In this document: positions 1-14,590 of the stretch, in pieces | Layout: every line of letters begins with the position of its first letter | Position numbering within the stretch: position 1 is the stretch's first letter | Virus record (IMG/VR): IMGVR_UViG_2563366895_000002 | Coordinates: 1-14,590 of that record | DNA: 14,590 nucleotides | Direction: 5' to 3' (one strand) | Source: a virus | Lineage: Duplodnaviria > Heunggongvirae > Uroviricota > Caudoviricetes | Notes under the pieces: generated by a model | What the model saw: only the letters and a program-made list of their open reading frames with translations | Databases searched by the model: none | Told to the model about the DNA's origin: nothing | Made by a program: the position numbers and the translations under genes

Positions 1-1164
1 TTACGCCTTCTTTATATCCTCCATAATTCCAGAGTGGGACATATTTGGGACATTATCACCAAAAATGTCGTCTATTTTCCTCGCATGCTCTGTCAAATGA
101 TTAGGCGCAAGGTGAGCATACCTACGAACCATTTCTATGGACTCCCATCCGCCCATTTCCTGAAGCACTGATAATGGGACGCCTGACTGAATCAGCCAGC
201 TTGCCCAGGTGTGTCTGAGGTCATGGAAACGGAAATCTTCAATTCCTGCACGACGACAAGCTGATAGCCATGATGTCTTGCTGTCGATGCGCATCTTCCT
301 GACCGCAGGCGTTGATGTTCCATCTGCTCGCTTAGCCGCCTTGGTATGTACAAACACCCATTTGTGATGCTTGCCTATTTGATCACGCAACACTTTACAG
401 GCGGTATCGTTCAGCGCCACACCAATGGCGCGGTTTGATTTGCTCTCTTCTGGATTCACCCAGGCAACTCGTCGCTGCATGTCGATTTGTTGCCATTCCA
501 GATTTATGATGTTCGACTTTCTCAGACCAGTTGCCAGCGCAAACTTGACGACAGATTTCAGTGGTTCGGGGCACTCATCAATAAGGCGTTTTGCTTCCTC
601 CTTTTCCAGCCATCTGACTCGCTTGTTTCTGACCGCTGGTATCTTGATGACAGGCGCTTTTTCCAGCCACTTCCAGTCGCGTTCTGCAGCACGGAGAATG
701 GCCTTTATCATGGCAAGATGCTTTGCCTTTGTCTGAGTTGATACTGGCTTTGGTTCATAAACAGGCGGTTCTTTACCTTTCCTGATGGCGGCCTGAACTT
801 TCTGTTTCCATATTTCTTTCGTCTTTCTGTTATGCATTCTGCTTACAGCAGAGTAAATCTTTGCCTCCGAGATATCTTTAAGCCTTATACCCTCAAAATG
901 TTCAAGCCAGAACTCAATCCGGCTTTTATCTGAATCGAGAGATTTTTTATCAGCTTTTTCCTCAAGCCATCTTAGGCAGGCCTCTTCAAAAGTGACATCA
1001 GGTAAATCCCCTAGCTTTTCTACTCGCCAGAGTTCTGCTTTTCGCTTGTCGTGCAACTCCTGAGCTTGCCGCTTGTCCTTTGTGCCAAGAGATTCCTTAA
1101 TTCGTTTCCCGCCCGGGAGCGAATACGAGGCATACCATATTTCATTTCTGCGGAAGAGTGACAT
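1..1164 (-). CDS. intD: Phage tyrosine integrase (DLP12/P22-type), complete 387 aa
   Basis: Full-length ORF on the minus strand; stop codon at bases 1-3. C-terminal catalytic region shows the tyrosine-recombinase motifs ([10 protein letters not shown] ... VRRYAHL). Recognised from memory as the DLP12 integrase; the 3' end faces the window edge as expected for an int gene next to attL/tRNA. Confidence 0.9.
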
Positions 1165-1296
1165 TTTCTTTCCTCTGTTATGCCATCACCCGCGCTCACC
1201 TGGACAGTATGCAGCGGAGACTGAAGCGCCGCAATGCAGGCTTGCCGTGTTGTGAGGTAAGGAGATTTTGGCTTGGTTGGATCTTTACGTGTTGCC

Positions 1297-1470
1297 TGTA
1301 AAAGCCGCGAGGACAACGCTGTCGCAGTGTTGGCGGAACTGCTGACGCGTGCTTATCCTTGTCCGCCGCTGACACCACGTATACCAGCCGCTGCGGGCCA
1401 CCCGGAGCACGCGGCACATTGCTTTGATGCTGAACTCAGCCTGATGTTTTTCAATAAAGACATACTTCAT
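1297..1470 (-). pseudogene. insF: IS3 OrfB (InsF) N-terminal fragment, truncated after ~58 codons
   Basis: [58 protein letters not shown] matches the InsF N-terminus, then diverges and hits a stop; the DDE catalytic core is absent. Confidence 0.75.
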
Positions 1471-1766
1471 TTCAGGCGCTTCGCGAAGTATGTCGCGGCC
1501 TTTTGGAGGATAGCCAGCTCTTCATCCCGTTCTGCCAGCTGGCGTTTGAGACGTGCAATCTCGGTAGACATCTCCAGTTCACGTTCAGAAGACGTCTGCT
1601 GATTTTGCTGTTTACTGCGCCAGTTGTAGAGCTGTGATTCATACAGGCTGAGTTCACGGGCTGCGGCAGTAACACCGATGCGTTCAGCAAGCTTCAGGGC
1701 TTCACTGCGAAATTCAGGCGAATGCTGTTTACGGGGTTTTTTACTGGTTGATACTGTTTTTGTCAT
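1467..1766 (-). CDS. insE: IS3 OrfA transposase subunit (InsE), 99 aa
   Basis: Translation [40 protein letters not shown]... matches IS3 OrfA; ATG at 1766 (the track's 1775 start is an upstream GTG). Confidence 0.85.
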
Positions 1767-1831
1767 GTGAGTCACCTCTGACTGAGAGTTTACTCACTTA
1801 GCCGCGTGTCCACTATTGCTGGGTAAGATCA

Positions 1832-1994
1832 GCGAACGGTGTATTACCGGTTCGCTACCAGAGAAGAACGGGAAGGAAAGGTGAGCACGAATCTGATTTT
1901 TAAGGAGTGTCGCCAGAGTGCCGCGATGAAACGCGTATTGAGGGTATATAAAAGGAACATCAATGGGTACACAATGATGAAACAGGTGAGTTGA
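1832..1994 (+). pseudogene. renD: C-terminal remnant of Ren-like protein (renD'), separated from its 5' part by the IS3 insertion
   Basis: Frame starting at 1839 translates VYYRFATREEREGKVSTNLIFKECRQSAAMKRVL..., resembling the lambda Ren C-terminus from memory; it begins immediately at the IS3 end (1831) and stops at 1992-1994. Confidence 0.55.
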
Positions 1995-2044
1995 TTTCAA
2001 ACTGTAGTACAATTCTCTCCAGTTTGAACAGGAAAGAATATGCT

Positions 2045-2377
2045 ATGAACCCTTATATTTATCTTGGTGGTGCAATACTTGCAGAGGTCATTGGTACAAC
2101 CTTAATGAAGTTTTCAGAAGGTTTTACACGGTTATGGCCATCTGTTGGTACAATTATTTGTTATTGTGCATCATTCTGGTTATTAGCTCAGACGCTGGCT
2201 TATATTCCTACAGGGATTGCTTATGCTATCTGGTCAGGAGTCGGTATTGTCCTGATTAGCTTACTGTCATGGGGATTTTTCGGCCAACGGCTGGACCTGC
2301 CAGCCATTATAGGCATGATGTTGATTTGTGCCGGTGTGTTGGTTATTAATTTATTGTCACGAAGCACACCACATTAA
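2045..2377 (+). CDS. emrE: Small multidrug resistance (SMR) efflux transporter EmrE, 110 aa
   Basis: Translation MNPYIYLGGAILAEVIGTTLMKFSEGFTRLWPSVGTIICYCASFWLLAQTLAYIPTGIAYAIWSGVGIVLISLLSWGFFGQRLDLPAIIGMMLICAGVL.INLLSRSTPH matches EmrE from memory, including the conserved membrane-embedded Glu in the first helix (AILAEVIGT). ATG at 2045; the track's 1991 start is an upstream TTG. Confidence 0.95.
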   Translation: MNPYIYLGGAILAEVIGTTLMKFSEGFTRLWPSVGTIICYCASFWLLAQTLAYIPTGIAYAIWSGVGIVLISLLSWGFFGQRLDLPAIIGMMLICAGVLVINLLSRSTPH

Positions 2378-2408
2378 AAATAATTTGTTTCTAAACGACT
2401 AAAATATG

Positions 2409-2446
2409 GAGGCTCTTATATTTATATGAGCCTCGTTTTATGCTTT
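2409..2446 (+). terminator. Putative intrinsic terminator downstream of emrE
   Basis: GAGGCTC (2409-2415) pairs with GAGCCTC (2428-2434) around an AT-rich loop, followed by GTTTTATGCTTTTTG. Confidence 0.5.
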
Positions 2447-2633
2447 TTGTTAATGTCTTTATTTTTTTATGTATTCTTTTGTGCTTTCAAGATTATGGCG
2501 TAAGAAAATTGCAATACGATTATTGTTGTATATTCAAGATAATGTGACCTTAATTGTCTTTTTAAATAAAAATTAAACAAAAATTATATCTCACCACTAA
2601 GGTTTATAAAAGCATACGTTAGCAGGTGTCACC

Positions 2634-4160
2634 ATGAAAAAAGCCATAGCATATATGCGATTTTCATCACCAGGTCAGATGTCTGGCGACTCATTAAACC
2701 GACAGAGAAGACTTATTGCTGAATGGTTAAAGGTAAATAGTGATTATTATCTTGATACCATAACATATGAAGATTTAGGATTAAGTGCATTCAAAGGAAA
2801 GCATGCACAATCAGGAGCTTTTTCGGAATTTTTAGATGCTATAGAGCATGGTTATATATTGCCAGGAACTACATTGTTAGTTGAAAGTCTGGACAGACTT
2901 TCAAGAGAAAAAGTCGGTGAAGCGATTGAGCGTCTGAAATTGATTTTGAATCACGGTATTGATGTTATAACTCTTTGCGATAATACAGTCTATAATATTG
3001 ACTCTTTGAATGATCCATATTCATTAATAAAAGCCATACTTATAGCACAAAGGGCAAATGAAGAAAGCGAGATAAAGTCAAGTCGGGTTAAATTATCATG
3101 GAAGAAAAAACGGCAGGATGCACTGGAGTCAGGCACGATTATGACGGCGTCTTGTCCGAGATGGCTCTCCTTAGATGACAAAAGAACGGCTTTTGTTCCA
3201 GACCCCGACAGGGTGAAAACTATTGAGCTAATTTTTAAACTCAGGATGGAAAGGCGCTCATTGAATGCAATAGCCAAGTATTTAAATGATCATGCTGTAA
3301 AGAATTTCTCAGGAAAAGAAAGTGCATGGGGACCTTCTGTAATTGAAAAATTATTAGCGAATAAAGCTCTGATAGGTATATGCGTACCTTCATATCGTGC
3401 AAGAGGTAAAGGAATAAGTGAAATCGCTGGCTATTATCCCAGAGTCATATCAGATGATTTGTTTTACGCTGTGCAGGAAATTCGGTTGGCACCTTTTGGT
3501 ATTAGCAATAGTAGCAAAAACCCTATGTTGATAAATCTACTTCGAACAGTTATGAAGTGCGAGGCTTGTGGTAATACCATGATTGTTCATGCGGTATCTG
3601 GAAGTTTGCATGGCTATTATGTTTGTCCGATGAGAAGACTGCATCGATGTGACAGGCCATCAATAAAGAGAGATTTGGTTGATTATAATATCATTAATGA
3701 GTTGCTTTTTAATTGTAGTAAAATCCAACCAGTTGAAAACAAGAAAGATGCTAATGAAACTTTAGAGTTGAAAATTATTGAGCTCCAGATGAAAATTAAT
3801 AATTTAATTGCTGCATTATCTGTTGCGCCTGAAGTTACCGCTATAGCAGAAAAAATCAGAGTATTAGATAAGGAATTACGAAGGGCTTCTGTATCATTAA
3901 AAACTTTGAAGAGTAAAGCGGTGAGCTCACTTGGTGATTTTCATGCTATTGACTTAACCAGTAAAAATGGGCGAGAGCTATGTCGTACACTTGCCTATAA
4001 AACATTCGAAAAAATCATAATCAATACAGATAATAAAACCTGTGATATCTATTTTATGAATGGCATTGTTTTTAAACACTATCCTTTAATGAAAACAATA
4101 TCCGCCCAGCAGGCGATAAGTACTCTCAAATATATGGTTGATGGTGAGGTTTATTTTTGA
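2634..4160 (+). CDS. ybcK: Large serine recombinase (resolvase/invertase-type N-terminal domain), YbcK-like, 508 aa
   Basis: N-terminal YMRFSSPGQ motif with the presumptive catalytic Ser; a Cys-rich segment (CEACGN...CPMRRLHRC) typical of large serine recombinases. Matches DLP12 YbcK by length and sequence from memory. ATG at 2634 with AGGTG 6 nt upstream. Gene is visibly AT-rich. Confidence 0.85.
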   Translation: MKKAIAYMRFSSPGQMSGDSLNRQRRLIAEWLKVNSDYYLDTITYEDLGLSAFKGKHAQSGAFSEFLDAIEHGYILPGTTLLVESLDRLSREKVGEAIERLKLILNHGIDVITLCDNTVYNIDSLNDPYSLIKAILIAQRANEESEIKSSRVKLSWKKKRQDALESGTIMTASCPRWLSLDDKRTAFVPDPDRVKTIELIFKLRMERRSLNAIAKYLNDHAVKNFSGKESAWGPSVIEKLLANKALIGICVPSYRARGKGISEIAGYYPRVISDDLFYAVQEIRLAPFGISNSSKNPMLINLLRTVMKCEACGNTMIVHAVSGSLHGYYVCPMRRLHRCDRPSIKRDLVDYNIINELLFNCSKIQPVENKKDANETLELKIIELQMKINNLIAALSVAPEVTAIAEKIRVLDKELRRASVSLKTLKSKAVSSLGDFHAIDLTSKNGRELCRTLAYKTFEKIIINTDNKTCDIYFMNGIVFKHYPLMKTISAQQAISTLKYMVDGEVYF

Positions 4161-4271
4161 GTAATAATCACTTTTTCAACCGTGCTATAGTAAGAAAGTT
4201 AGGTAAGTACAATAAAATTATCTATCCTGAACGAAGCGTCCTGAGCTATGGTTTTACTATAGGGACTGCCA

Positions 4272-4589
4272 ATGGATGCTGGCGTTCTCGTTCTAGCAGT
4301 TCAACAATCCCCAATCACAAAACAATTCACTGATAACGAACTTTGCACACTCGCCTGGTTATGGCGAGCAGGGAATGTGATGTTAATTGCCTACCAGAAC
4401 GTTACTCATCTTCTTCAGGATGCGGAGCATGGTGAAGCTGGTCACTTCACTTCCATCGAGCAAGAATATCCCCAGATACTCAACAGAGCGCGAGCAATCC
4501 TCGTCCGAGAAACGGCACATGTAAAACTTCAGCCGTGGCAGGATGATAAGTGGAGTCGAGTATTGCCGTATTTGCGTCAAATCTGTTAG
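4272..4589 (+). CDS. Hypothetical protein, 105 aa, no family recognised
   Basis: ATG-initiated ORF with GC content near the host average, flanked by AT-rich DNA. No motif I can assign and no convincing Shine-Dalgarno seen; may be a gene remnant. Confidence 0.35.
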   Translation: MDAGVLVLAVQQSPITKQFTDNELCTLAWLWRAGNVMLIAYQNVTHLLQDAEHGEAGHFTSIEQEYPQILNRARAILVRETAHVKLQPWQDDKWSRVLPYLRQIC

Positions 4590-4686
4590 GAGTATAGCCG
4601 CCAGCCATGAGTGTTGTATTAAAACAAGGATGTCTATATATGGGATAGCGAGAGTATGAATATCAGTTATTTTGAGAGTTAACTGA

Positions 4687-4710
4687 TTGTGAAATTAGTT
4701 TTTTTCACAA
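4687..4710. promoter_or_regulatory. Inverted repeat TTGTGAAA-N8-TTTCACAA upstream of the 309-aa ORF; candidate operator
   Basis: Perfect 8-bp arms at 4687-4694 and 4703-4710 in an AT-rich intergenic region about 85 bp upstream of the ATG at 4794. Confidence 0.25.
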
Positions 4711-4793
4711 ACGAGTGGGGTTACTATGATGAGTGTTCTAATGCATAGGGAACACCTAATTTTTTCAATGAATTCAAATTGATAGGATCAAAA

Positions 4794-5723
4794 ATGGCAC
4801 AACAGAGAACTACCTCCCTCAGATCCATACCTTTAGACTTAGATGTTAAGCAAGAGGCTGTCATTAACGGTATAGAAATGGGGGTACTCGATAACGGAAT
4901 TCCGTACCTTACTCAGAATGGGTTGGCAAATGTTTGTGGTGTTCAGCGTTTGCGAATCAAGGAAATTACCGATGAGTGGGCTCAATCCGTTGAGAACGGT
5001 ATTTTCAAAAAAGGAAGAATGACTTTTATTGGTACATATCTTCTTAATGAAGGTTTTACAGATGAAAAACTTTATATACCAATAATTCGAAATGGTGTTG
5101 AGTACCATGCTTATCCAGATGTTGTATGCATGGCTATACTTGAATACTATGCCTTTGAAGCAAAACAAGCAGAAAGTGAGACTGCAATTAGATCTTACAG
5201 AGAGCTTGCTAAAAAAGGCCTCAAGACATTTATATACGAGGCGCTAAAATATCAACCGGAGGACCCGTGGAGGCATTACCATGACAGAGTATCTTTATTA
5301 AAAGATAAGGGAACCATACCTGATGGGTATTTCATTATATTTAATGAAATTGCAGGTATGATGGTAGATCTCATCAATGCTGGATTAGCGATTAATCAGC
5401 ATACCGTACCTGATGGCAGTGTTGGTTCTTGCTGGGCGCGTCACTGGAAAGCAAAGGGGTTAGCAACAGAATTTGGAGAAAGAGTAGACTGTGAGCATTA
5501 TTACCCTGAAGATTTTCTTCAGGCAAGTTCCAATCCTCAGATCATTAATGCCTATCCTGATTCTGCATTGTCAGAGTTTCGTAGATGGTTTAAGCATGAA
5601 TATTTAACCACAAAGTTCCCACCGTATATTCTTAAAAAATCAAACGTGCTTCCTGGTGGTACAGAAGATGCTAATCGTCTGATAGAAGCTTTCAAAAAAT
5701 CAGAGCTAGAAAATAAACCATAA
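4794..5723 (+). CDS. Hypothetical protein, 309 aa, unknown function; candidate prophage cargo or defence protein
   Basis: ATG at 4794 preceded by AGGA at 4784-4787 (the track's 4779 start is an upstream TTG). Long clean ORF, visibly AT-rich, no transmembrane or signal sequence evident. N-terminal segment (GIEMGVLDNGIPYLTQNGLANVCGVQRLRIKEITDEW) is loosely reminiscent of KilA-N/Bro-N DNA-binding domains; this is unverified. Confidence 0.6.
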   Translation: MAQQRTTSLRSIPLDLDVKQEAVINGIEMGVLDNGIPYLTQNGLANVCGVQRLRIKEITDEWAQSVENGIFKKGRMTFIGTYLLNEGFTDEKLYIPIIRNGVEYHAYPDVVCMAILEYYAFEAKQAESETAIRSYRELAKKGLKTFIYEALKYQPEDPWRHYHDRVSLLKDKGTIPDGYFIIFNEIAGMMVDLINAGLAINQHTVPDGSVGSCWARHWKAKGLATEFGERVDCEHYYPEDFLQASSNPQIINAYPDSALSEFRRWFKHEYLTTKFPPYILKKSNVLPGGTEDANRLIEAFKKSELENKP

Positions 5724-5821
5724 TTGTTTTTTGGCTTTTGATTTTACATAATCATTTTGCCATAATCATGTCATCGGAGCCTGAACAACTCCGGTGACTT
5801 CTGCGCTAAACGGGGACGTTT

Positions 5822-5923
5822 ATGCGCACATACAATCCAAACTCTCTTCTCCCTTCACAGATGCAGAGATGCACCTGCGATTTTTTGCATCCAGCGTTTG
5901 ACCTCTGCGGAGGTGAAGCGTGA
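5822..5923 (+). CDS. ylcH: Small protein YlcH-like, 33 aa
   Basis: [36 protein letters not shown] whose stop overlaps the ybcN GTG start (GTGA); position and size match DLP12 ylcH from memory. Confidence 0.45.
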
Positions 5924-6375
5924 ATCTCCCACAAGATGGCATCAAATTACATCGCGGTAACTTCACCGCTATCGGTCGGCAGATCCAGCCTTATCTGGAG
6001 GAGGGCAAATGCTTTCGCATGGTGCTTAAACCGTGGCGTGAGAAACGCAGTCTTTCCCAGAATGCACTCAGCCACATGTGGTACAGCGAAATCAGTGAAT
6101 ACCTCATCAACAGGGGTAAAACGTTCGCCACTCCAGCTTGGGTAAAAGATGCTCTCAAACACACATATCTCGGTTATGAAACCAAAGACCTGGTTGATGT
6201 CGTAACCGGTGATATCACCACTATCCAGTCGTTACGCCATACCTCCGATCTTGATACCGGAGAGATGTATGTCTTCCTGTGTAAGGTTGAAGCCTGGGCG
6301 GTGAATATTGGCTGCCACCTGACTATTCCGCAGAGCTGCGAGTTCCAGCTGCTCCGTGACAAGCAGGAGGCGTAA
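5920..6375 (+). CDS. ybcN: YbcN, NinB/Orf-like DNA-binding protein, 151 aa
   Basis: GTG start at 5920 with GGAGG upstream; translation matches DLP12 YbcN from memory. Confidence 0.85.
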
Positions 6376-6545
6376 TGGCTACACCGCTTATTCGTGTCAT
6401 GAACGGACACATCTACAGAGTATCAAATCGTCGTAAGCGTAAGCCTGAGCCGAAGCCATCCGAAATACCAACACTGCTCGGATATACCGCTAGCCTGGTT
6501 GATAAAAAATGGTTGCGACTGGCAGCAAGGAGGAATCATGGCTGA
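6375..6545 (+). CDS. ninE: NinE-like protein, 56 aa
   Basis: ATG overlaps the ybcN stop (TAATG); translation [56 protein letters not shown]. Below the track's length cutoff, found by reading the sequence. Confidence 0.75.
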   Translation: MATPLIRVMNGHIYRVSNRRKRKPEPKPSEIPTLLGYTASLVDKKWLRLAARRNHG

Positions 6546-6828
6546 TTTGAGAAAAGCAGCGCGTGGTCGGGAATGCCAGGTAAGAATCCCTGGCGTATGT
6601 AATGGCAATTCTGAAACGTCTGTACTGGCACATATCCGGCTGGCTGGATTGTGCGGTACCGGTATCAAACCGCCAGACCTGATTGCCACCATTGCATGTT
6701 CTGCCTGCCACGACGAAATCGACCGCCGCACACATTTTGTCGATGCTGCATATGCAAAAGAATGCGCGCTGGAAGGTATGGCGAGAACACAGGTTATTTG
6801 GCTGAAAGAGGGGGTTATTAAGGCGTGA
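6538..6828 (+). CDS. ybcO: YbcO, Cys/His-rich putative metal-binding nuclease-like protein, 96 aa
   Basis: ATG at 6538 overlapping the ninE 3' end; translation [24 protein letters not shown]...CSACHDEID matches YbcO from memory (the track's 6499 start is an upstream alternative). Confidence 0.8.
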
Positions 6829-7187
6829 ATACCTACAGCATCACATTACCCTGGCCTCCGAGCAATAATCGCTATTACCGCCATAATCGCGGGCGCACGC
6901 ACATCAGCGCAGAAGGGCAGGCATACCGCGATAACGTCACCCGAATCATTAAAAACGCAATGCTGGATATCGGCCTGGCTATGCCAGTGAAAATCCGTAT
7001 TGAGTGCCACATGCCGGATCGCCGTCGCCGTGACCTGGATAATCTGCAAAAAGCCGCTTTTGACGCACTCACCAAAGCAGGTTTCTGGCTGGATGATGCT
7101 CAGGTCGTTGATTACCGCGTTGTGAAGATGCCTGTTACCAAAGGTGGGAGGCTGGAACTGACCATCACCGAAATGGGGAATGAATGA
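6825..7187 (+). CDS. rusA: RusA Holliday junction resolvase, 120 aa
   Basis: GTG at 6825 overlapping the ybcO stop (GTGA); translation [36 protein letters not shown]... matches RusA from memory. Confidence 0.9.
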
Positions 7188-7324
7188 TGTTTGAGTTTTA
7201 TATGGCAGAACTTCTTCGCCACCGCTGGGGGCATCTGCGCTTATATCGTTTCCCCGGTTCTGTTTTGACCGATTACCGAATACTGAAGAATTACGCCAAA
7301 ACCCTGACAGGAGCAGGAGTATGA
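7184..7324 (+). CDS. ylcG: YlcG-like small protein, 46 aa
   Basis: ATG overlapping the rusA stop; translation [46 protein letters not shown]. Confidence 0.6.
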
Positions 7325-7409
7325 AGTCAGAGATAACAATCAACTAATACTGTTTTGTTGATTTTTGCTTGTAATTGGCGTTCTGGTCTGATTTTTGTGG
7401 AGTAAGTTG

Positions 7410-7793
7410 ATGCGTGATATTCAGATGGTTCTTGAGCGTTGGGGAGCGTGGGCGGCTAATAATCATGAAGATGTGACCTGGTCGTCCATTGCCGCCGGTT
7501 TTAAGGGATTAATTACTTCAAAAGTAAAATCTCGCCCGCAATGTTGTGACGATGACGCGATGATTATTTGCGGGTGCATGGCCCGTCTGAAAAAGAACAA
7601 CAGCGATTTGCACGATTTATTAGTAGATTATTATGTAGTCGGTATGACATTCATGTCACTGGCAGGTAAGCATTGCTGCTCTGATGGTTATATCGGGAAA
7701 AGGTTACAGAAGGCTGAGGGCATAATTGAAGGGATGTTAATGGCATTAGATATCCGGTTAGAGATGGATATCGTTGTTAATAACTCTAATTAA
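7410..7793 (+). CDS. quuD: Late-gene antiterminator Q homolog (QuuD), 127 aa
   Basis: ATG at 7410 (the track's 7395 start is an upstream TTG); translation [24 protein letters not shown]... with the Cys cluster [12 protein letters not shown]; sits immediately upstream of the hairpin cluster and lysis genes. Confidence 0.85.
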
Positions 7794-7810
7794 TATGCCA
7801 ATTGTTTACT

Positions 7811-7844
7811 AAAAATTATTAAAAATGGGGCGTTGAGACGCCCC
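7811..7844 (-). terminator. GC-rich hairpin GGGGCG-TTGAGA-CGCCCC with U-tract on the minus strand
   Basis: Stem 7827-7832 / 7839-7844; the + strand upstream is AAAAATTATTAAAAAT, which reads as a T-tract after the hairpin on the minus strand. Could terminate nmpC transcription or be part of the late promoter region; strand assignment is uncertain. Confidence 0.4.
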
Positions 7845-7883
7845 CAAAAATAAAGGGTAATATATAACAGAAGGTTTATATAG

Positions 7884-7972
7884 TTAGAAGCAAGGTTGTG
7901 CTTCTAAAGGAAGTGGCTTGAGGGAGCCACTTATATGTTGGGGAGGCAACGCCTCCCGCAACATATCTTTTT
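7884..7972 (+). terminator. Three consecutive hairpins downstream of quuD, the last followed by CTTTTT (tR'-like intrinsic terminator)
   Basis: Hairpins at 7884-7907 (TTAGAAGCA/TGCTTCTAA), 7911-7932 (AAGTGGCT/AGCCACTT) and 7933-7966 (ATATGTTGGGGAGGC/GCCTCCCGCAACATAT), then T-run 7967-7972. Position between Q and the lysis genes fits a lambdoid late leader/terminator. Confidence 0.5.
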
Positions 7973-7982
7973 CGTAATCAGA

Positions 7983-9080
7983 TTAGAACTGGTAAACCAG
8001 ACCTACAGCAACGATGTCATCAGTGCTTACACCGAGTGCTTTAGTGAAGTCATTTTTGTCAAGCAGGTTGATTTTGTAATCAACGAAAGTAGACATATTT
8101 TTGTTGAAGTAATAGGTTGCACCTACATCAACATATTTGACTAAGTCCTGATCGCCCCATACTCCAAGATCTTTACCTTTAGATTGCAGGTAAGCAACGG
8201 ACGGACGCAGACCGAAATCGAACTGATATTGTGCAACAGCTTCGAAGTTTTGGGCTTTATTAGCAACGAAGTGATCAGCAAATACAGTCATATTCTGGGT
8301 TTCAGAATAGGTAGTGGCCAGGTAAATGTTGTTAGCGTCATATTTCAGACCTGCGGCCCAAACTTCTGCATTTTTACCGGAAGCAAATACTTCAGGAAGA
8401 ACTTTCCCTGCATTAACTTGAGTGTCGGTACGATCAGATTTCGCATAAGTTGCACCGATACCGAATCCTTCGTATTCATAGGTAGCAGAGAAACCGAAGC
8501 CATCACCGTTACCTTCAGTGTAGTTATCGAAATCGCTACGATCGTTTTTGCCTTGGTACTGAGCAGCAAAGTTCAGACCATCAACCAGACCAAAGAAGTC
8601 GTTGTTACGATAGGTTGCAACACCAGTGGTGCGACCAGTCATGAACACATCTGTTTGGGTCCAGGTATCGCCACCGAATTCTGGCAGAACGTCAGTCCAC
8701 GCACCGATGTCGTATGCTACACCGTAGTTACGGCCGTAATCGATTGAGCCGTAGTCACCGAATTTCAGGCCTGCAAATGCAAGACGGGTTTTGTCTTTGG
8801 AGGAACCTTGAGATTCAGCGCGGTTGCCTTTGAATTCATATTCCCACTGACCGAAACCAGTCAGTTGATCGTTGATTTGGGTTTCACCTTTGAAGCCAAG
8901 ACGGGCATAAGTAGTATCACCATCATCTGCATCATTAGAGGAGAAGTAGTGCTTGGCATTAACTTTCCCGTACAGATCCAGCTTGTTACTGTCTTTATTA
9001 TAAATTTCAGCTGCCTGAGCAGACATCGCCATCAGTACTGATGCAGCTACAGCAGAAATTGCCACTGTTAATTTTTTCAT
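7983..9080 (-). CDS. nmpC: Outer membrane porin NmpC (OmpC/OmpD family), intact 365 aa with signal peptide
   Basis: Translation begins [29 protein letters not shown] and ends with the porin C-terminal ...VAVGLVYQF; full length with no interruption. Confidence 0.9.
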
Positions 9081-9668
9081 CGTGAGCCCTTTTTTTTGAA
9101 CTATTATTAAAAAATGATGTCACTGCGCGATAAATATTCATCTAATCAATGTGATTATTTCAAGATGTAAGTTTTAGTTTCTCATTTAATTTGTGAAGTA
9201 GATCTCTATTTTTATCTGAACTTTTTCTATCGAAACCTATTTATGGCTCTTATTTGAACAAAAATAAACCTATTAGCTAATTTATATTAATGGTTGTTAT
9301 TTATGGAGGTTCTATAATTCGGCAGTTTAATTTAAATCAACTAAAAATAACGTCTGAAATTATTTATTGGTTATTTGTTGAGGTTTTCTTATGTATTTGT
9401 GGTGGTGTTTTGAACACTCGGTAGCATTCTCATAAATATCATTCAGTGGTTTACGTACGTAAAAAATTGGTTATGCTGTTAAGAGTGGTTACTTCGTCAC
9501 ACAGCTTAAACCCGCCGTCGAGCTGGTTTTTCCATTTTTTGAGTCTCGATATTAGCTGATAACTCAATACCTGAGTTATTCACTGACTCCGAGTCTGTTA
9601 CGTTTCTGCTTTTTTGCGATACGTTGTATTCCCTCAATTTACACCCGCTTTGTCTGCGAGGTGGGGTT

Positions 9669-9884
9669 ATGAAATCCATGGATAAGTTAACAACGGGTGT
9701 CGCCTATGGCACCTCAGCAGGTAGTGCCGGTTACTGGTTTTTACAGCTGCTCGATAAAGTCACGCCCTCACAGTGGGCAGCAATAGGTGTGCTGGGTAGC
9801 CTGGTATTTGGCCTGCTGACGTACCTGACAAACCTTTATTTCAAGATTAAAGAAGATAAGCGCAAGGCTGCGAGAGGTGAATAA
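9669..9884 (+). CDS. essD: Pinholin (phage 21 S-type), 71 aa, with MKSM dual-start motif
   Basis: Translation [71 protein letters not shown]; ATG at 9669 (the track's 9624 start is an upstream alternative); stop overlaps the rrrD start (TAATG). Confidence 0.8.
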
Positions 9885-10381
9885 TGCCTCCATCATTACG
9901 AAAAGCCGTTGCTGCTGCTATTGGTGGCGGAGCAATTGCTATAGCATCAGTGTTAATTACTGGCCCAAGTGGTAACGATGGTCTGGAAGGTGTCAGCTAC
10001 ATACCATACAAAGATATTGTTGGTGTATGGACTGTATGTCACGGGCATACAGGAAAAGACATCATGCTCGGTAAAACGTATACCAAAGCAGAATGCAAAG
10101 CCCTCCTGAATAAAGACCTTGCCACGGTCGCCAGACAAATTAACCCGTACATCAAAGTCGATATACCGGAAACAATGCGCGGCGCTCTTTACTCATTCGT
10201 TTACAACGTGGGTGCTGGCAATTTCAGAACATCGACGCTTCTTCGCAAAATAAACCAGGGCGATATCAAAGGCGCATGTGATCAGCTACGTCGCTGGACA
10301 TATGCTGGCGGTAAGCAATGGAAAGGTCTCATGACTCGTCGTGAGATTGAGCGTGAAATCTGTTTGTGGGGTCAGCAATGA
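9884..10381 (+). CDS. rrrD: SAR endolysin (lysozyme), 165 aa
   Basis: N-terminal Gly/Ala-rich signal-anchor-release segment ([20 protein letters not shown]) followed by a lysozyme domain; matches RrrD from memory. Confidence 0.9.
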
Positions 10382-10839
10382 ACAGAGTAACCGCGATTAT
10401 CTCCGCTCTGGTTATCTGCATCATCGTCGGCCTGTCATGGGCTGTTAATCATTACCGTGATAACGCCATTACCTACAAAGCCCAGCGCGACAAAAATGCC
10501 AGAGAACTGAAGCTGGCGAACGCGGCAATTACTGACATGCAGATGCGTCAGCGTGATGTTGCTGCGCTCGATGCAAAATACACGAAGGAGTTAGCTGATG
10601 CGAAAGCTGAAAATGATGCTCTGCGTGATGATGTTGCCGCTGGTCGTCGTCGGTTGCACATCAAAGCAGTCTGTCAGTCAGTGCGTGAAGCCACCACCGC
10701 CTCCGGCGTGGATAATGCAGCCTCCCCCCGACTGGCAGACACCGCTGAACGGGATTATTTCACCCTCAGAGAGAGGCTGATCACTATGCAAAAACAACTG
10801 GAAGGAGCCCAGAAGTATATTAATGAGCAGTGCAGATAG
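10378..10839 (+). CDS. rzpD: Rz-like spanin (inner-membrane subunit), 153 aa
   Basis: ATG at 10378 overlapping the rrrD stop; N-terminal transmembrane helix and coiled-coil-like Ala/Asp/Arg-rich region. Confidence 0.85.
10598..10780 (+). CDS. rzoD: Rz1-like outer-membrane lipoprotein spanin subunit, 60 aa, embedded in rzpD in another frame
   Basis: ATG at 10598 with GGAG upstream; lipobox LVVVGC; proline-rich (PPPPPAW...PPPDW); lies entirely within rzpD. Confidence 0.8.
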
Positions 10840-10870
10840 AGCTGCCCATATCGATGGGCAACTCATGCAA

Positions 10871-11164
10871 TTATTGTGAGCAATACACACGCGCTTCCAG
10901 CGGAGTATAAATGCCTAAAGTAATAAAACCGAGCAATCCATTTACGAATGTTTGCTGGGTTTCTGTTTTAACAACATTTTCTGCGCCGCCACAAATTTTG
11001 GCTGCATCAACAGTTTTCTCCTGTCCAATTCCCGAAACGAAGAAGTGATGGGTGATGGTTTCCTTTGGTGTTACTGCTGTCGGTTTGTTTCCAACAGTAA
11101 ACGTCTGTTGAGCACATCCTGTAATAAGCATTGCCAGAGCGGCAGAAAACAACATTTTTTTCAT
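10871..11164 (-). CDS. borD: Bor lipoprotein homolog (serum-resistance-associated), 97 aa
   Basis: Translation MKKMLFSAALAMLITGC... with lipobox LITGC; ATG at 11164 (the track's 11212 start is an upstream alternative). Confidence 0.85.
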   Translation of the reverse strand: MKKMLFSAALAMLITGCAQQTFTVGNKPTAVTPKETITHHFFVSGIGQEKTVDAAKICGGAENVVKTETQQTFVNGLLGFITLGIYTPLEARVYCSQ

Positions 11165-11523
11165 CTTATTATCCTGCATTGTTAAAAACGGCAGAATCCT
11201 ATGTGACAACAATTAAACGATAGTTAAATGGATTGATGAAAATTAAAACTATATAGGTGGATGCTCAGCCTATTGGAGGAGGGGGGCACTCAGAATCCTG
11301 TGGAATGAAATAAACCGCTCTTTCTGTCCATTACCCTTTTAGCTGCGCTGTATCGTCGCCGTATTCCCGCATTAACCATGACCGTAGCCCGACGGGGAAT
11401 TCCTTCTGCGTGAGTGTGCGGGAATAATCAAAAACGATGCACACCGGGTTTTACTGTGCTGACAGACGCAGGGTTACCCTCATAGTCGCTTTTCCGGTGC
11501 GATGGTGGAAGAAACCGGGATGT

Positions 11524-11718
11524 TTATTCATCATCACTTTGGATTGATGTATATGCTCTCTTTTCTGACGTTAGTCTCCGACGGCAGGCTTCAATGACCC
11601 AGGCTGAGAAATTCCCAGACCCTTTTTGCTCAAGAGCGATGTTAATTTGTTCAATCATTTGGTTAGGAAAGCGGATGTTGCGGGTTGTTGTTCTGCGGGT
11701 TCTGTTCTTAGTTGACAT
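11524..11718 (-). CDS. ylcI: Small ribbon-helix-helix-like protein (YlcI-like), 64 aa
   Basis: ATG at 11718; Arg-rich N-terminus followed by a predicted strand-helix-helix pattern (RNIRFPNQMIEQINIALEQKGSGNFSAWVIEACRRRL). Confidence 0.55.
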   Translation of the reverse strand: MSTKNRTRRTTTRNIRFPNQMIEQINIALEQKGSGNFSAWVIEACRRRLTSEKRAYTSIQSDDE

Positions 11719-11879
11719 GAGGTTGCCCCGTATTCAGTGTTGCTGATTTGTATTGTCTGAAGTTGTTTTTACGTTAAGTTGATGCAGATCAATTAATACG
11801 ATACCTGCGTCATAATTGATTATTTGACGTGGTTTGATGGCGTAGATGCACGTTGTGATATGTAGATGATAATTATTAT

Positions 11880-12106
11880 CATTTTTCGGGTCCTTTCCGG
11901 CGATCCGACAGGTTACGGGGCGGCGACCTCGCGGGTTTTCGCTATTTATGAAAATTTTCCGGTTTAAGGCGTTTCCGTTCTTCTTCGTCATAACTTAATG
12001 TTTTTATTTAAAATACCCTCTGAAAAGAAAGGAAACGACAGGTGCTGAAAGCGAGCTTTTTGGCCTCTGTCGTTTCCTTTCTCTGTTTTTGTCCGTGGAA
12101 TGAACA
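11880..12106 (+). other. Lambda-type cos site (cosQ, cosN 12-nt cohesive end at 11918-11929, cosB with Nu1 R-sites)
   Basis: Sequence ...CGGGTCCTTTCCGGCGATCCGACAGGTTACG/GGGCGGCGACCTCGCGGGTTTTCGCTATTTATGAAAATTTTCCGGTTTAAGGCGTTTCCGTTCTTCTTCG... is nearly identical to the lambda cos region as I remember it, continuing into the Nu1 start codon at 12107. Confidence 0.8.
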
Positions 12107-13327
12107 ATGGAAGTCAACAAAAAGCAGCTGGCTGATATTTTCGGTGCGAGTATCCGTACCATTCAGAACTGGCAGGAGCAGGGAATGCCCGTTCTGCGAG
12201 GCGGTGGCAAGGGTAATGAGGTGCTTTATGATTCTGCCGCCGTCATAAAATGGTATGCCGAAACCATGCCACAGGCGAGTTCTGTTGTTTCAATTACGTT
12301 GATTGGTGGCGCTGGATTTAACGTGGGGTCACCTCAACAGGCAGGTATATCTGAACTTGTTTTACGTGCAGGTAATGGTAATCCGAAGGGGATTACTGGT
12401 GCTTTATGGCAGCGCACATCGACAGGGTTTACAAATTTTGCCTGGGTCAATACATCTGGTGATACTTACGATATTTACGTTGCAATCGGAAATTATGCGA
12501 CTGGTGTAAATATTCAATGGGATTATACCAGTAATGCCAGCGTGACGATTCATACGTCACCAGCATATTCTGCTAATAAGCCGGAAGGGTTAACGGACGG
12601 TACAGTTTATTCACTCTATACGCCATCAGAGCAGTTTTATCCGCCTGGCGCACCAATCCCGTGGCCATCAGATACCGTTCCGTCTGGCTATGCCCTGATG
12701 CAGGGGCAGACTTTTGACAAATCTGCATACCCGAAACTTGCAGCCGCTTATCCGTCAGGCGTGATCCCTGATATGCGTGGCTGGACGATTAAGGGCAAAC
12801 CTGCCAGTGGTCGGGCCGTATTGTCTCAGGAACAGGACGGCATTAAATCGCATACCCACAGCGCCAGCGCATCCAGTACGGATTTGGGGACGAAAACCAC
12901 ATCGTCGTTTGATTACGGCACTAAATCCACGAATAACACTGGTGCGCATACCCATAGTTTAAGTGGCAGCACGAATGCAGCTGGTAATCACAGCCATAGA
13001 GATGGCCGTCGATTTAACCCCAGTGTTTTTAAAGATACTTATCAATATGGTTATACAAGCTCAGGTCAAAATACCTGGGGTGTACAAGGCTCAGTAGGTA
13101 TGTCTACGGGGTGGTTAGCGAATACCAGTACAGATGGTAATCATAGCCATTCACTGTCCGGCACAGCAGCATCTGCAGGTGCACACGCGCATACTGTCGG
13201 TATTGGTGCTCATACGCACTCCGTTGCGATTGGTTCACATGGACACACCATCACCGTTAACGCTGCTGGTAACGCGGAAAACACCGTCAAAAACATCGCA
13301 TTTAACTATATTGTGAGGCTTGCATAA
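12107..13327 (+). CDS. Chimeric ORF: terminase small subunit Nu1 N-terminus (aa 1-~52, winged-helix DNA-binding part) fused in frame to a side tail fibre C-terminal region (~354 aa) with HxH repeats
   Basis: First 52 residues [52 protein letters not shown] match lambda Nu1; after about 12264 the sequence switches to tail-fibre-like sequence ([48 protein letters not shown]...) with six HxH motifs (GAHTHS, GNHSHR, GNHSHS, GAHAHT, GAHTHS, GSHGHT). Confidence 0.8.
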
Positions 13328-13999: not shown

Positions 14000-14590
14000 T
14001 TATATGTCAGGTGTCTGAAGTTTTGCTTTGGCTCTTAAAATGGTTTGCCGCGAGGTTTTGAATTCCCGGGCAATGGCACTTATACTTACACCTGACTTAA
14101 TTCGTTCGAATACCACCTGTTTCTGTTCTTCATTTAACACAGGTGGTCGACCAAAACGTTTCCCTGCGCCGCGGGCTCTTACTATCCCGGAATGAGTGCG
14201 TTCAAGTAAAAGGTCTCGTTCAAATTCAGCGACTGCTGAAATTACGTGCATCATCATTTTTCCTGTTGGACTGGTCAGGTCAATGCCCCCCAATGCTAAG
14301 CAATGCACTCTGATACCTGTTTCGGTCAGTTGTTCCACTGTTTTCCTGATATCCATTGCATTACAACCAAGGCGATCCAGTTTTGTCACAATCAATTGAT
14401 CACCACATTTCAGGCGAGCAAGCAACCGGTTAAAACCAGGACGCTCACTGGTTGCTGCTGAGCCGCTAATGTGTTCTTCGATTATTTGCTGAGGTTTGAT
14501 TTTAAAACCTGCACTTTCGATTTCCCTGCGTTGATTTTCGATGGTCTGATCCAGCGTTGATATCCGACAGTAAGCAAAAATTCGAGACAT
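14000..14590 (-). CDS. pinR: Serine DNA invertase of the Pin/Gin/Hin/Cin family, complete 196 aa
   Basis: Start codon at the window edge (14588-14590); N-terminal catalytic motif [10 protein letters not shown] with the active-site Ser, and a C-terminal HTH ([22 protein letters not shown]). Closest to PinR/PinQ from memory. Confidence 0.9.

Follow-up and report, generated by a model that had tools for sequence, protein, structure and literature searches.

An IS3 remnant in ren joined to a truncated xis in a DLP12-type prophage of E. coli WL164: a probable short-homology deletion at a recurrent xis breakpoint

INTRODUCTION

The locus described here lies in a stretch of viral DNA of 14,590 nucleotides (IMG/VR record IMGVR_UViG_2563366895_000002), which is called the window throughout, and its closest described relatives are DLP12 and the phages of the same type. 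The cryptic ('grounded') DLP12 prophage resembles the window in its argU attachment, 47-bp repeat, intD, emrE-ybcK, nin region, rusA, quuD, porin and lysis genes (PMC6379469), and has likewise lost early and structural genes. However, the deletion endpoints of the window differ from those of K-12, and the window has kept its porin gene intact and has another module where K-12 has ybcL-ybcM. The active DLP12-type phages PhiR68_2, 2G7b, ev243 and Turner are collinear with the window in gene order and 99.9-100% identical to it over int and the first 136 bp upstream, but, unlike the window, they are complete in xis, early region and structural genes.

The other point of reference is IS3C in the renD gene of K-12. 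It is the same IS, with 99.8% identity over 534 nt, and it too interrupts the short ren gene of an argU prophage of this family. Whereas the K-12 copy is complete (1258 bp), the window copy is inverted and has lost nt 535-1258. An earlier note on this DNA, made from the sequence alone, had described an IS3 remnant inside ren, had attributed its truncation to a deletion that also took the region between int and the IS, and had pointed to K-12 DLP12 for comparison. Here, we describe the anatomy of the locus, compare it with K-12 and with related prophages and phages, and weigh the ways in which it could have arisen.

RESULTS

The region under study was 100% identical to E. coli WL164 (NZ_CP128642.1) over positions 1000-2100, and also over 1-2400 in BLAST. 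The PGAP labels in that record are 'IS3-like element IS3 family transposase; frameshifted; incomplete' and a partial 'protein ren'. With a 1.1-kb query spanning the whole remnant, full-length matches were obtained in 1 of 5426 complete genomes, which was WL164 alone, and a 200-bp query over the joint between the left inverted repeat (IRL) and ren likewise matched at full length in a single genome of the 5426, again WL164. The IS3-in-ren/xis structure, known from this one assembly, is private to strain WL164. The locus as a whole is a case of ordinary IS and prophage decay, the partial IS3 being already flagged in RefSeq.

At its left edge, the window has the stop codon of intD, which occupies 1..1164 on the minus strand and is an intact ORF for a tyrosine integrase of 387 aa (Pfam Phage_integrase, E=5.5e-47) that is annotated intD in WL164. 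Partly overlapping it is a 3' remnant of xis (1020..1300, minus strand), which, judged by the intact xis of sister prophages, extends from the second base of codon 31 through codons 32-123 and the stop. It is followed by the IS3 remnant (1298..1831, minus strand) and then by a 3' fragment of ren (1832..1994, plus strand), which starts with the last base of codon 53, includes the stop and adjoins IRL, as delimited by the WL164 annotation and by alignments to intact ren (SCU-171, LR-31, 23CRST035 and PhiR68_2). Rightward of the remnant, the nearest intact gene is emrE (2045..2377, plus strand; ORF and WL164 annotation), with ybcK next. YbcK (2634..4160) has Resolvase, Recombinase and Zn-ribbon domains in Pfam, and a Pin invertase is located at 14000..14590. 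The collinear DLP12-type gene set, ren-emrE-ybcK ... rusA-quuD-porin-lysis, was present.

When IS3C of K-12 MG1655 was aligned to the window by BLAST, its nt 534..1 matched the minus strand of 1298..1832 at all but 1 of 535 positions, the mismatch being at IS3 nt 200. The IRL is about 39 bp long (1793..1831, minus strand, outer end at 1831) and the same as the first bases of K-12 IS3C (TGATCTTACCCAGCAATAGTGG...). The orfA gene (insE; 1467..1766, minus strand) is intact with 99 aa plus stop, is identical to K-12 InsE over those 99 aa and has a Pfam HTH_Tnp_1 match (E=5e-10), so that the left end and orfA are as intact as the earlier note had stated. Its reading that orfB stops matching after codon 58 was borne out as well: the truncated frame (1285..1470, minus strand) is identical to InsF up to residue 58 (..AAFT) and then runs through three codons and a stop from xis DNA (GNT-stop). 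The A-AAA-G motif for -1 frameshifting, read from the sequence, is kept at 1504..1500 on the minus strand.

What is absent is IS3 nt 535-1258 (724 bp), that is, orfB codons 59-288, DDE domain included, and the right inverted repeat (IRR). Pfam gave no match for the truncated orfB (58 of 288 codons), in which the DDE catalytic domain is absent, and BLAST against K-12 placed no IRR in the remnant, whose inner edge joins xis DNA. The surviving flank of IS3 is that on the IRL side (GCG AAC..), the IRR-side flank having been deleted. Realignment of the interval returned no full-length IS3 but nt 1-534 only, in keeping with a one-ended remnant in ren, with IRL adjoining the 3' third of the gene and IRR gone. 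With one end and no catalytic domain, the remnant is probably immobile, and OrfA and a truncated OrfAB would still be encodable by it. OrfA/OrfAB-type products of IS3 and IS911 are end-binding regulators. A break at IS3 nt 534 was found nowhere else in IMG/VR, and a single chance match came from an unrelated MAG; Rfam had no match over 900-2500.

The position of the element was compared with that in K-12. There, the IRL of IS3C follows ren nt 93, orfA and orfB lie on the ren strand and IRR points toward emrE. In the window, it is IRL that points toward emrE. It directly adjoins ren nt 159, orfA runs antiparallel to the gene, and the two copies lie 65 nt apart within ren in opposite orientation. 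K-12 also has breakpoints of its own, one in xis at window-equivalent 1259 and one where exo is joined to P, and the window is without both. The descent from the K-12 arrangement that the earlier note implied was thus contradicted by site, orientation and breakpoints alike. Because the IS3 copies differ in ren position and orientation, the K-12 arrangement is not ancestral, and the two are independent insertions. This is a useful correction, as IS3 in ren has arisen at least two times independently. The ren target left of the insertion (TGGTAAGGTCT) and the IS3 end (GGGTAAGATCA) are alike in about 8 of 11 bases, which is only marginally significant given the number of offsets possible. IS3-family elements such as IS911 can target sites beside end-like sequences.

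In sister prophages, intact xis is a gene of 372 bp encoding 123 aa (MESYSLTLDEACQFLKISRPTATNWIRTGRLQATRK...), located at window-equivalent 1391..1020 with its ATG at 1391, and its product matches Pfam HTH_17 over residues 6-36 with 35.5 bits against a cutoff of 27. The int-xis module has about 78% nucleotide identity to P22-like Salmonella phages, and a PDB sequence search with Xis gave no meaningful match. In the window, 281 bp of the gene are left, 145 bp of them overlapping int, and the start codon and codons 1-30 are lost. Residues 1-30 are gone, the first half of the HTH included. The window ORF over the remnant (1020..1316) had no Pfam match, and its sole start is a TTG inside IS3 DNA. 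A search of the interval for an xis gene therefore ended with the truncated 3' remnant and no intact copy. Reduced to codons 32-123, without HTH and start codon, the remnant is not expected to provide a functional xis, which agrees with the earlier proposal that the integrase has lost its excisionase partner.

In RefSeq, the xis of intact prophages appears as a tiny 'incomplete HTH' pseudogene, and the annotation of phage Turner has a 57-aa ORF in the wrong frame at this place. The DLP12-family xis, a 123-codon gene overlapping int, is thus misannotated or missed in RefSeq and phage records.

Alignment to IS3 and to K-12 DLP12 placed the breakpoint between IS3 nt 534 and xis, at a 3-bp microhomology GTA (1298..1300) where the BLAST alignments overlap and which is common to xis codon 30/31 and IS3 nt 532-534. 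The joint reads ..GTTGCCTGTA / AAAGCCGCG.., the stroke marking the breakpoint. In short form, the window has ..GCCTGTA/AAAGCC, and the parents are ..GCCTGTA/GGCGGCC in xis and ..CCGGGTA/AAAGCC in the reverse complement of IS3, with GTA as the only overlap. The distance from the break to int, given in the earlier note as about 130 bp, spans 1165..1297 or 1165..1300, that is, 133-136 bp to the intD ATG (1164). As the joint lies at internal IS3 nt 532-534 and not at an IS terminus, it supports the secondary deletion, rather than transposition, that had been suggested.

On the int side, window 1..1300 was 100% identical to the active phages 2G7b, ev243 and PhiR68_2, and the segment 1165..1300 recurs at 100% identity in front of int in many prophages and active phages. 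On the ren side, 10.4 kb (window 1832-12263) were 100.0% identical to genomes including SCU-171, GE3 and RM9387. The two prophages inspected, those of SCU-171 and RM9387, have the full early region in place, with int, xis, DUF4222, TraR/DksA, orf61-like, DUF1382, DUF1317, exo, bet, gam and kil, followed by the repressor, cro-like, YdaT/cII-like, O, P and ren genes. Window 1..1300 corresponds to 2892..4191 of the prophage L130 and the window from 1832 onward to L130 from 13349 onward, with 9157 bp of prophage missing. Compared with PhiR68_2, an active and intact DLP12-type phage of 49.7 kb, the window is without reference positions 1368-10233, and a separate deletion accounts for the missing structural genes (20939-42710 of PhiR68_2). 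The earlier claim that xis and exo had been removed was therefore right for exo, which is gone with the whole early region, but not for xis, which is truncated, and the loss exceeds the supposed one several-fold, at about 9.2 kb.

As estimated from these alignments, the deletion would have taken about 9.2 kb of prophage, from the xis 5' end through P and the ren 5' part, plus 724 bp of IS3. This size is not certain, because the chromosomal left flank of WL164 (fimH, sfmF and fimZ alleles) matches that of strain 41, FCI51 and TUM12355, and the strain 41 prophage is itself already deleted, by a different deletion that starts at the same xis nucleotide. The ren-emrE DNA of WL164 was 99.7% identical to the intact type (window 1822-3000), compared to 98.4% for strain 41 (1822-2400).

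The 47-bp argU core repeat was found at both ends of the WL164 prophage (attL and attR intact), with attR, a repeat of at least 47 bp, between ompT and envY and a tRNA-Arg 15 bp from the int stop, an arrangement consistent with the 47-bp argU repeat of DLP12 (PMC6379469). The genes orfA, truncated orfB, truncated xis and int are all co-oriented, with int downstream of IS3 orfA. A consensus scan for promoters and terminators over 900-2100 found nothing, and there was no terminator-like site between orfA and int. Since the genes are co-oriented without such a site between them, read-through from the IS3 promoter may contribute to int expression.

Excision in lambda/P22-type systems needs Xis, and by this analogy excision of the WL164 prophage should be strongly reduced or crippled. 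Excision that depends on Xis would be abolished, so that what remains would be rare at best and either Int-only or trans-complemented; a related Xis of another prophage could act in trans. Because the repressor, O and P are lost, the prophage would be unable to be induced or to replicate. It may be 'locked in', as the earlier note had it, though K-12 DLP12 with its truncated xis, which is cut further than that of the window, excises rarely, still doing so at <1 per 100,000 cells (PMC3105296).

Three different junctions end at the xis site ..CCTGTA, whose partners in them are IS3, orf61 and P. In strain 41, FCI51 and TUM12355, the same xis nucleotide is joined to orf61 with a TA overlap, and in two IMG/VR contigs and seven complete genomes it is joined to the P gene with a GTA overlap. 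In the first IMG/VR sample, all 119 matches listed were intact at the xis site. No junction variants were found in IMG/VR at two neighbouring TA positions, and no xis joint was found in metagenomes and species-representative genomes. None of the K-12 breakpoints was found with several partners, the searches returning only the K-12 joints and diverged xis alleles. That one endpoint recurs speaks against random placement of the break and for the view that 'generic illegitimate recombination' may not describe it fully. The 236 bp upstream of int contain 10 TA sites; should TA be favoured for whatever reason, a triple hit would be only mildly unlikely.

A catalogue of 25 distinct deletion joints in DLP12-type prophages, called against PhiR68_2 and taken from prophages keeping int, had TA within the exact microhomology at 13 joints compared to 1.4 expected, and 13 or more were reached in 0 of 20000 simulations. 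Where the overlap was 2 bp, it was TA in six of eight cases. The other 12 of the 25 joints were non-TA, and another recurrent site, at reference positions 1724-1726, was joined through TG, TGG or TGGA to three partners. The TA sites used (23 sites) have GC-rich, roughly dyad-symmetric arms of the form C-S-G-N-TA-N-C-S-G, with C at -4 in 23 of 46 arms against a background of 23% (p=7e-5) and an arm GC of 3.87 vs 2.67 for all 2389 TA sites in the reference (P<5e-5). In strain 23CRST035, a 343-bp bet fragment is inverted with TA at both joints, and strain LR-31 has a retained 52-bp fragment flanked by two joints, at one of which the partner site of strain 41 is used again.

Several explanations for these joints were considered. 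Gyrase-mediated recombination would be a poor fit to TA, the core of classical gyrase sites being R-Y centred. Three others were rejected. A crude regular expression for a gix/hix-like invertase site returned nothing relevant, and the shared hexamer GGCGGC that could make the xis site a pseudo-cosN is found at 59 places in the 49.7-kb reference. RpnA-type nucleases are reported to lack sequence specificity (PMC5350276). A literature search for ybcK as a serine recombinase found no papers.

DISCUSSION

We consider it probable, with good confidence, that the locus goes back to an independent IS3 insertion and one illegitimate deletion at short homology, and we infer that the insertion came first. 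IS3 would have inserted in ren beside codon 53 of an argU-integrated DLP12-type lambdoid prophage, with IRL toward emrE and orfA antiparallel to ren, independently of K-12 IS3C. A single illegitimate deletion of the microhomology type would then have fused the GTA of IS3 orfB (nt 532-534) to the GTA of xis (codon 30/31). Such a deletion would have cost IS3 its nt 535-1258, and with them the DDE catalytic domain and IRR. From the prophage, it would have taken codons 1-30 of xis, the small delayed-early orfs, exo, bet, gam, kil, the immunity region and the O and P genes, together with ren up to nt 158. An inversion is excluded because the two retained parts are adjacent.

Other routes to the same structure fit the evidence less well. 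That the deletion started from the K-12 order, intD-xisD-exoD-IS3-renD, and ran from the same IS3 copy toward int is suggested by the shared IS species, 303-bp gene and prophage family. However, the K-12 element has IRR toward emrE, orfA co-directional with ren and its insertion point after nt 93, the window element has the opposite geometry at nt 159 and neither K-12 breakpoint (window-equivalent 1259 in xis; exo-P), and inverting and shifting an element is impossible by deletion, which makes this origin extremely improbable. Flanking deletions are common from IS elements, and the likeness of the ren target to the IS3 end (about 8/11) suggests that the original insertion was transposase-guided, but deletions made by IS3 transposase keep a complete IS with its terminus at the joint. 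In the window, IRR is gone and the joint falls inside the element, at nt 534; a transposase-made adjacent deletion is excluded because there is no IS terminus at the joint, and together with a one-ended event we regard this class as hardly credible. The occurrence of the structure in one assembly and the multi-copy nature of IS3 could point to an artefact in the single WL164 record. Repeat collapse, though, links one IS copy to another IS copy and not an internal IS position to unique xis through 3 bp, and the flanks are collinear with many genomes, so an assembly error is very unlikely.

A decay in two stages is a further reading, which we think decidedly unlikely. According to this reading, an older deletion at xis 1300/1301, of the type of strain 41 or L133, was followed by IS3 insertion into ren and by a second deletion reaching the old junction. 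In support of it, strain 41, FCI51 and TUM12355 share the flank alleles of WL164 and have a junction at the same nucleotide, where seven other genomes have a third junction. On the other hand, the ren-emrE DNA of WL164 is nearer to the intact type (99.7%, and 100.0% over 1832-12263) than to strain 41 (98.4%), and the second event must have ended exactly on the old scar; if the site is a hot spot, one step is equally easy. The recurrence of the site also raises the question of whether the junction was made by random microhomology slippage at all, or by a site-preferring, TA-centred break-and-join, which we hold to be unlikely. Candidate activities would be a serine-recombinase-like exchange with a 2-nt stagger (YbcK or Pin), or cutting by a nuclease that leaves TA ends, followed by religation. 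A serine recombinase of relaxed specificity would fit, because a 2-nt palindromic crossover permits both deletion and inversion. Three junctions at ..CCTGTA, to IS3, orf61 and P, speak for such an activity, as do TA at 13 of 25 joints where 1.4 were expected, the GC-rich and roughly dyad-symmetric arms, the fragment inverted between two TA joints in one prophage, and two neighbouring TA sites without junction variants in IMG/VR. Weighing against it, YbcK and Pin are candidates solely by the 2-nt palindromic crossover logic; 12 of the 25 joints are non-TA, and the site at reference 1724-1726 recurs with TG, TGG and TGGA; the K-12 sites have one partner each; the motif is a weak one from 23 sites, in a joint set from prophages keeping int; and the triple hit is only mildly unlikely once TA is favoured for whatever reason, as 10 TA sites lie within 236 bp upstream of int. 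The broader proposal that a TA-centred cut-and-rejoin recurrently remodels DLP12-type prophages, with the IS3-xis joint as one of its products, has in our estimate a small chance of being correct.

The single short-homology deletion remains the preferred reading, and on it the locus is a strain-private example of how an IS insertion and a deletion can inactivate a prophage and yet leave int in place, along with the cargo genes emrE, ybcK, porin, the lysis cassette and iss/bor. Wider interest is limited to the recurrent xis breakpoint and the TA bias, which, if enzymatic, would bear on the origin of cryptic prophages. The 'grounding' of prophages in the DLP12-type family would in that case be partly enzyme-driven and not random decay.

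Compared with the described systems, the intact relatives conform to lambda/P22-type Xis in that a gene for a small HTH_17 protein lies immediately upstream of int and overlaps it, and the version in the window departs from them in being without residues 1-30 and a native start codon. The joint itself resembles short-homology illegitimate recombination in E. coli, with a 3-bp overlap, no IS end and no long repeat. Unlike that textbook mechanism, which predicts neither feature, the locus has an xis endpoint that occurs in three joints and belongs to a prophage family with an excess of TA at its deletion joints.

Recurrent deletion breakpoints in DLP12-type prophages

A single xis nucleotide was found to be the endpoint of the IS3 remnant joint (window 1298-1300, corresponding to ref 1367|1368 of L129, the active phage PhiR68_2) and of two other, different deletions. 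One of these joins xis to orf61 in strains 41 (L004 3301|3302), FCI51 and TUM12355, and the other joins xis to P in seven complete genomes and two IMG/VR contigs (joint type L133, 1300|1301). TA sites neighbouring this breakpoint were without comparable junction variants in IMG/VR. A second recurrent breakpoint, ..CAGTTGGA (ref 1724-1726), is intergenic and lies upstream of the DUF4222 gene. Across L031, L103, L143 and L144 it has been joined to ref 8587, to ref 15458 and to ref 2215, three distinct partners, with overlaps of TGG, TGGA and TG.

When 25 deletion joints of DLP12-type prophages were placed in PhiR68_2 coordinates, TA lay within the exact microhomology at 13 of them, compared with 1.4 expected. 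The arms of the TA sites used at joints were GC-rich and roughly dyad-symmetric (C-S-G-N-TA-N-C-S-G). The xis-P region of E. coli 23CRST035 (NZ_AP045805.1) is a rearrangement rather than a simple deletion: an inverted 343-bp bet/recT fragment (L005:3391-3738; ref 3832->3490) was placed between xis and P, and both of its joints have TA overlap.

Annotation of xis

In the DLP12 family, xis is a 123-codon ORF that overlaps int by 145 bp; the loci compared were L130 3911-4282 (a sister prophage with a complete early region), L008 3696-3866 and L002 2859-3080 (K-12). The 'xisD' of K-12 is without about the first 44 codons. RefSeq annotates the family gene merely as a 21-30-codon 'incomplete HTH' pseudogene, and the annotation of phage Turner at this position is a 57-aa ORF in another frame.

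The IS3 target in ren and nearby scars

Comparison of window 1821-1831 with L130 13337-13348 revealed that TGGTAAGGTCT, the ren sequence directly left of the IS3 insertion point, and GGGTAAGATCA, the tip of the IS3 IRL, agree in roughly 8 of 11 positions. The resemblance is of marginal significance but hints that the target may have been chosen for its likeness to the element's end.

The exo'-'ren joint of strain 41 (L004 4139-4145) lies 3-4 bp from the boundary between ren and the right end of IS3C, the complete IS3 of K-12 (L002 5035), and the exo breakpoint of strain 41 is about 5 bp from the exo'-P joint of K-12. These near-coincident scars are independent.

Other regions of the window

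A deletion separate from the IS3-xis one produced a 406-aa fusion ORF (window 12107-13327), in which Nu1 codons 1-52 are in frame with a tail-fibre C-terminus carrying Collar and fibre repeats. The joint falls directly after ..GCCGAAA and is non-TA, and window 12264-12632 is a tail-fibre segment absent from PhiR68_2. RefSeq records ylcJ of WL164 as frameshifted (window 2426-2576; L001 15427-15577) and ybcN as having an internal stop (window 5920-6375; L001 18921-19376); the frameshifts in ylcJ and ren are also present in relatives at 100% identity.

In place of ybcL-ybcM of K-12 and PhiR68_2, the window has a module (4170-5760) with a 105-aa P22AR C-terminal (BstA-like) fragment (4272-4589) and a 314-aa ORF (4779-5723) that gave zero Pfam matches. 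The nmpC-type porin gene (window 7983-9080, 365 aa) is intact, whereas that of K-12 is split by IS5.
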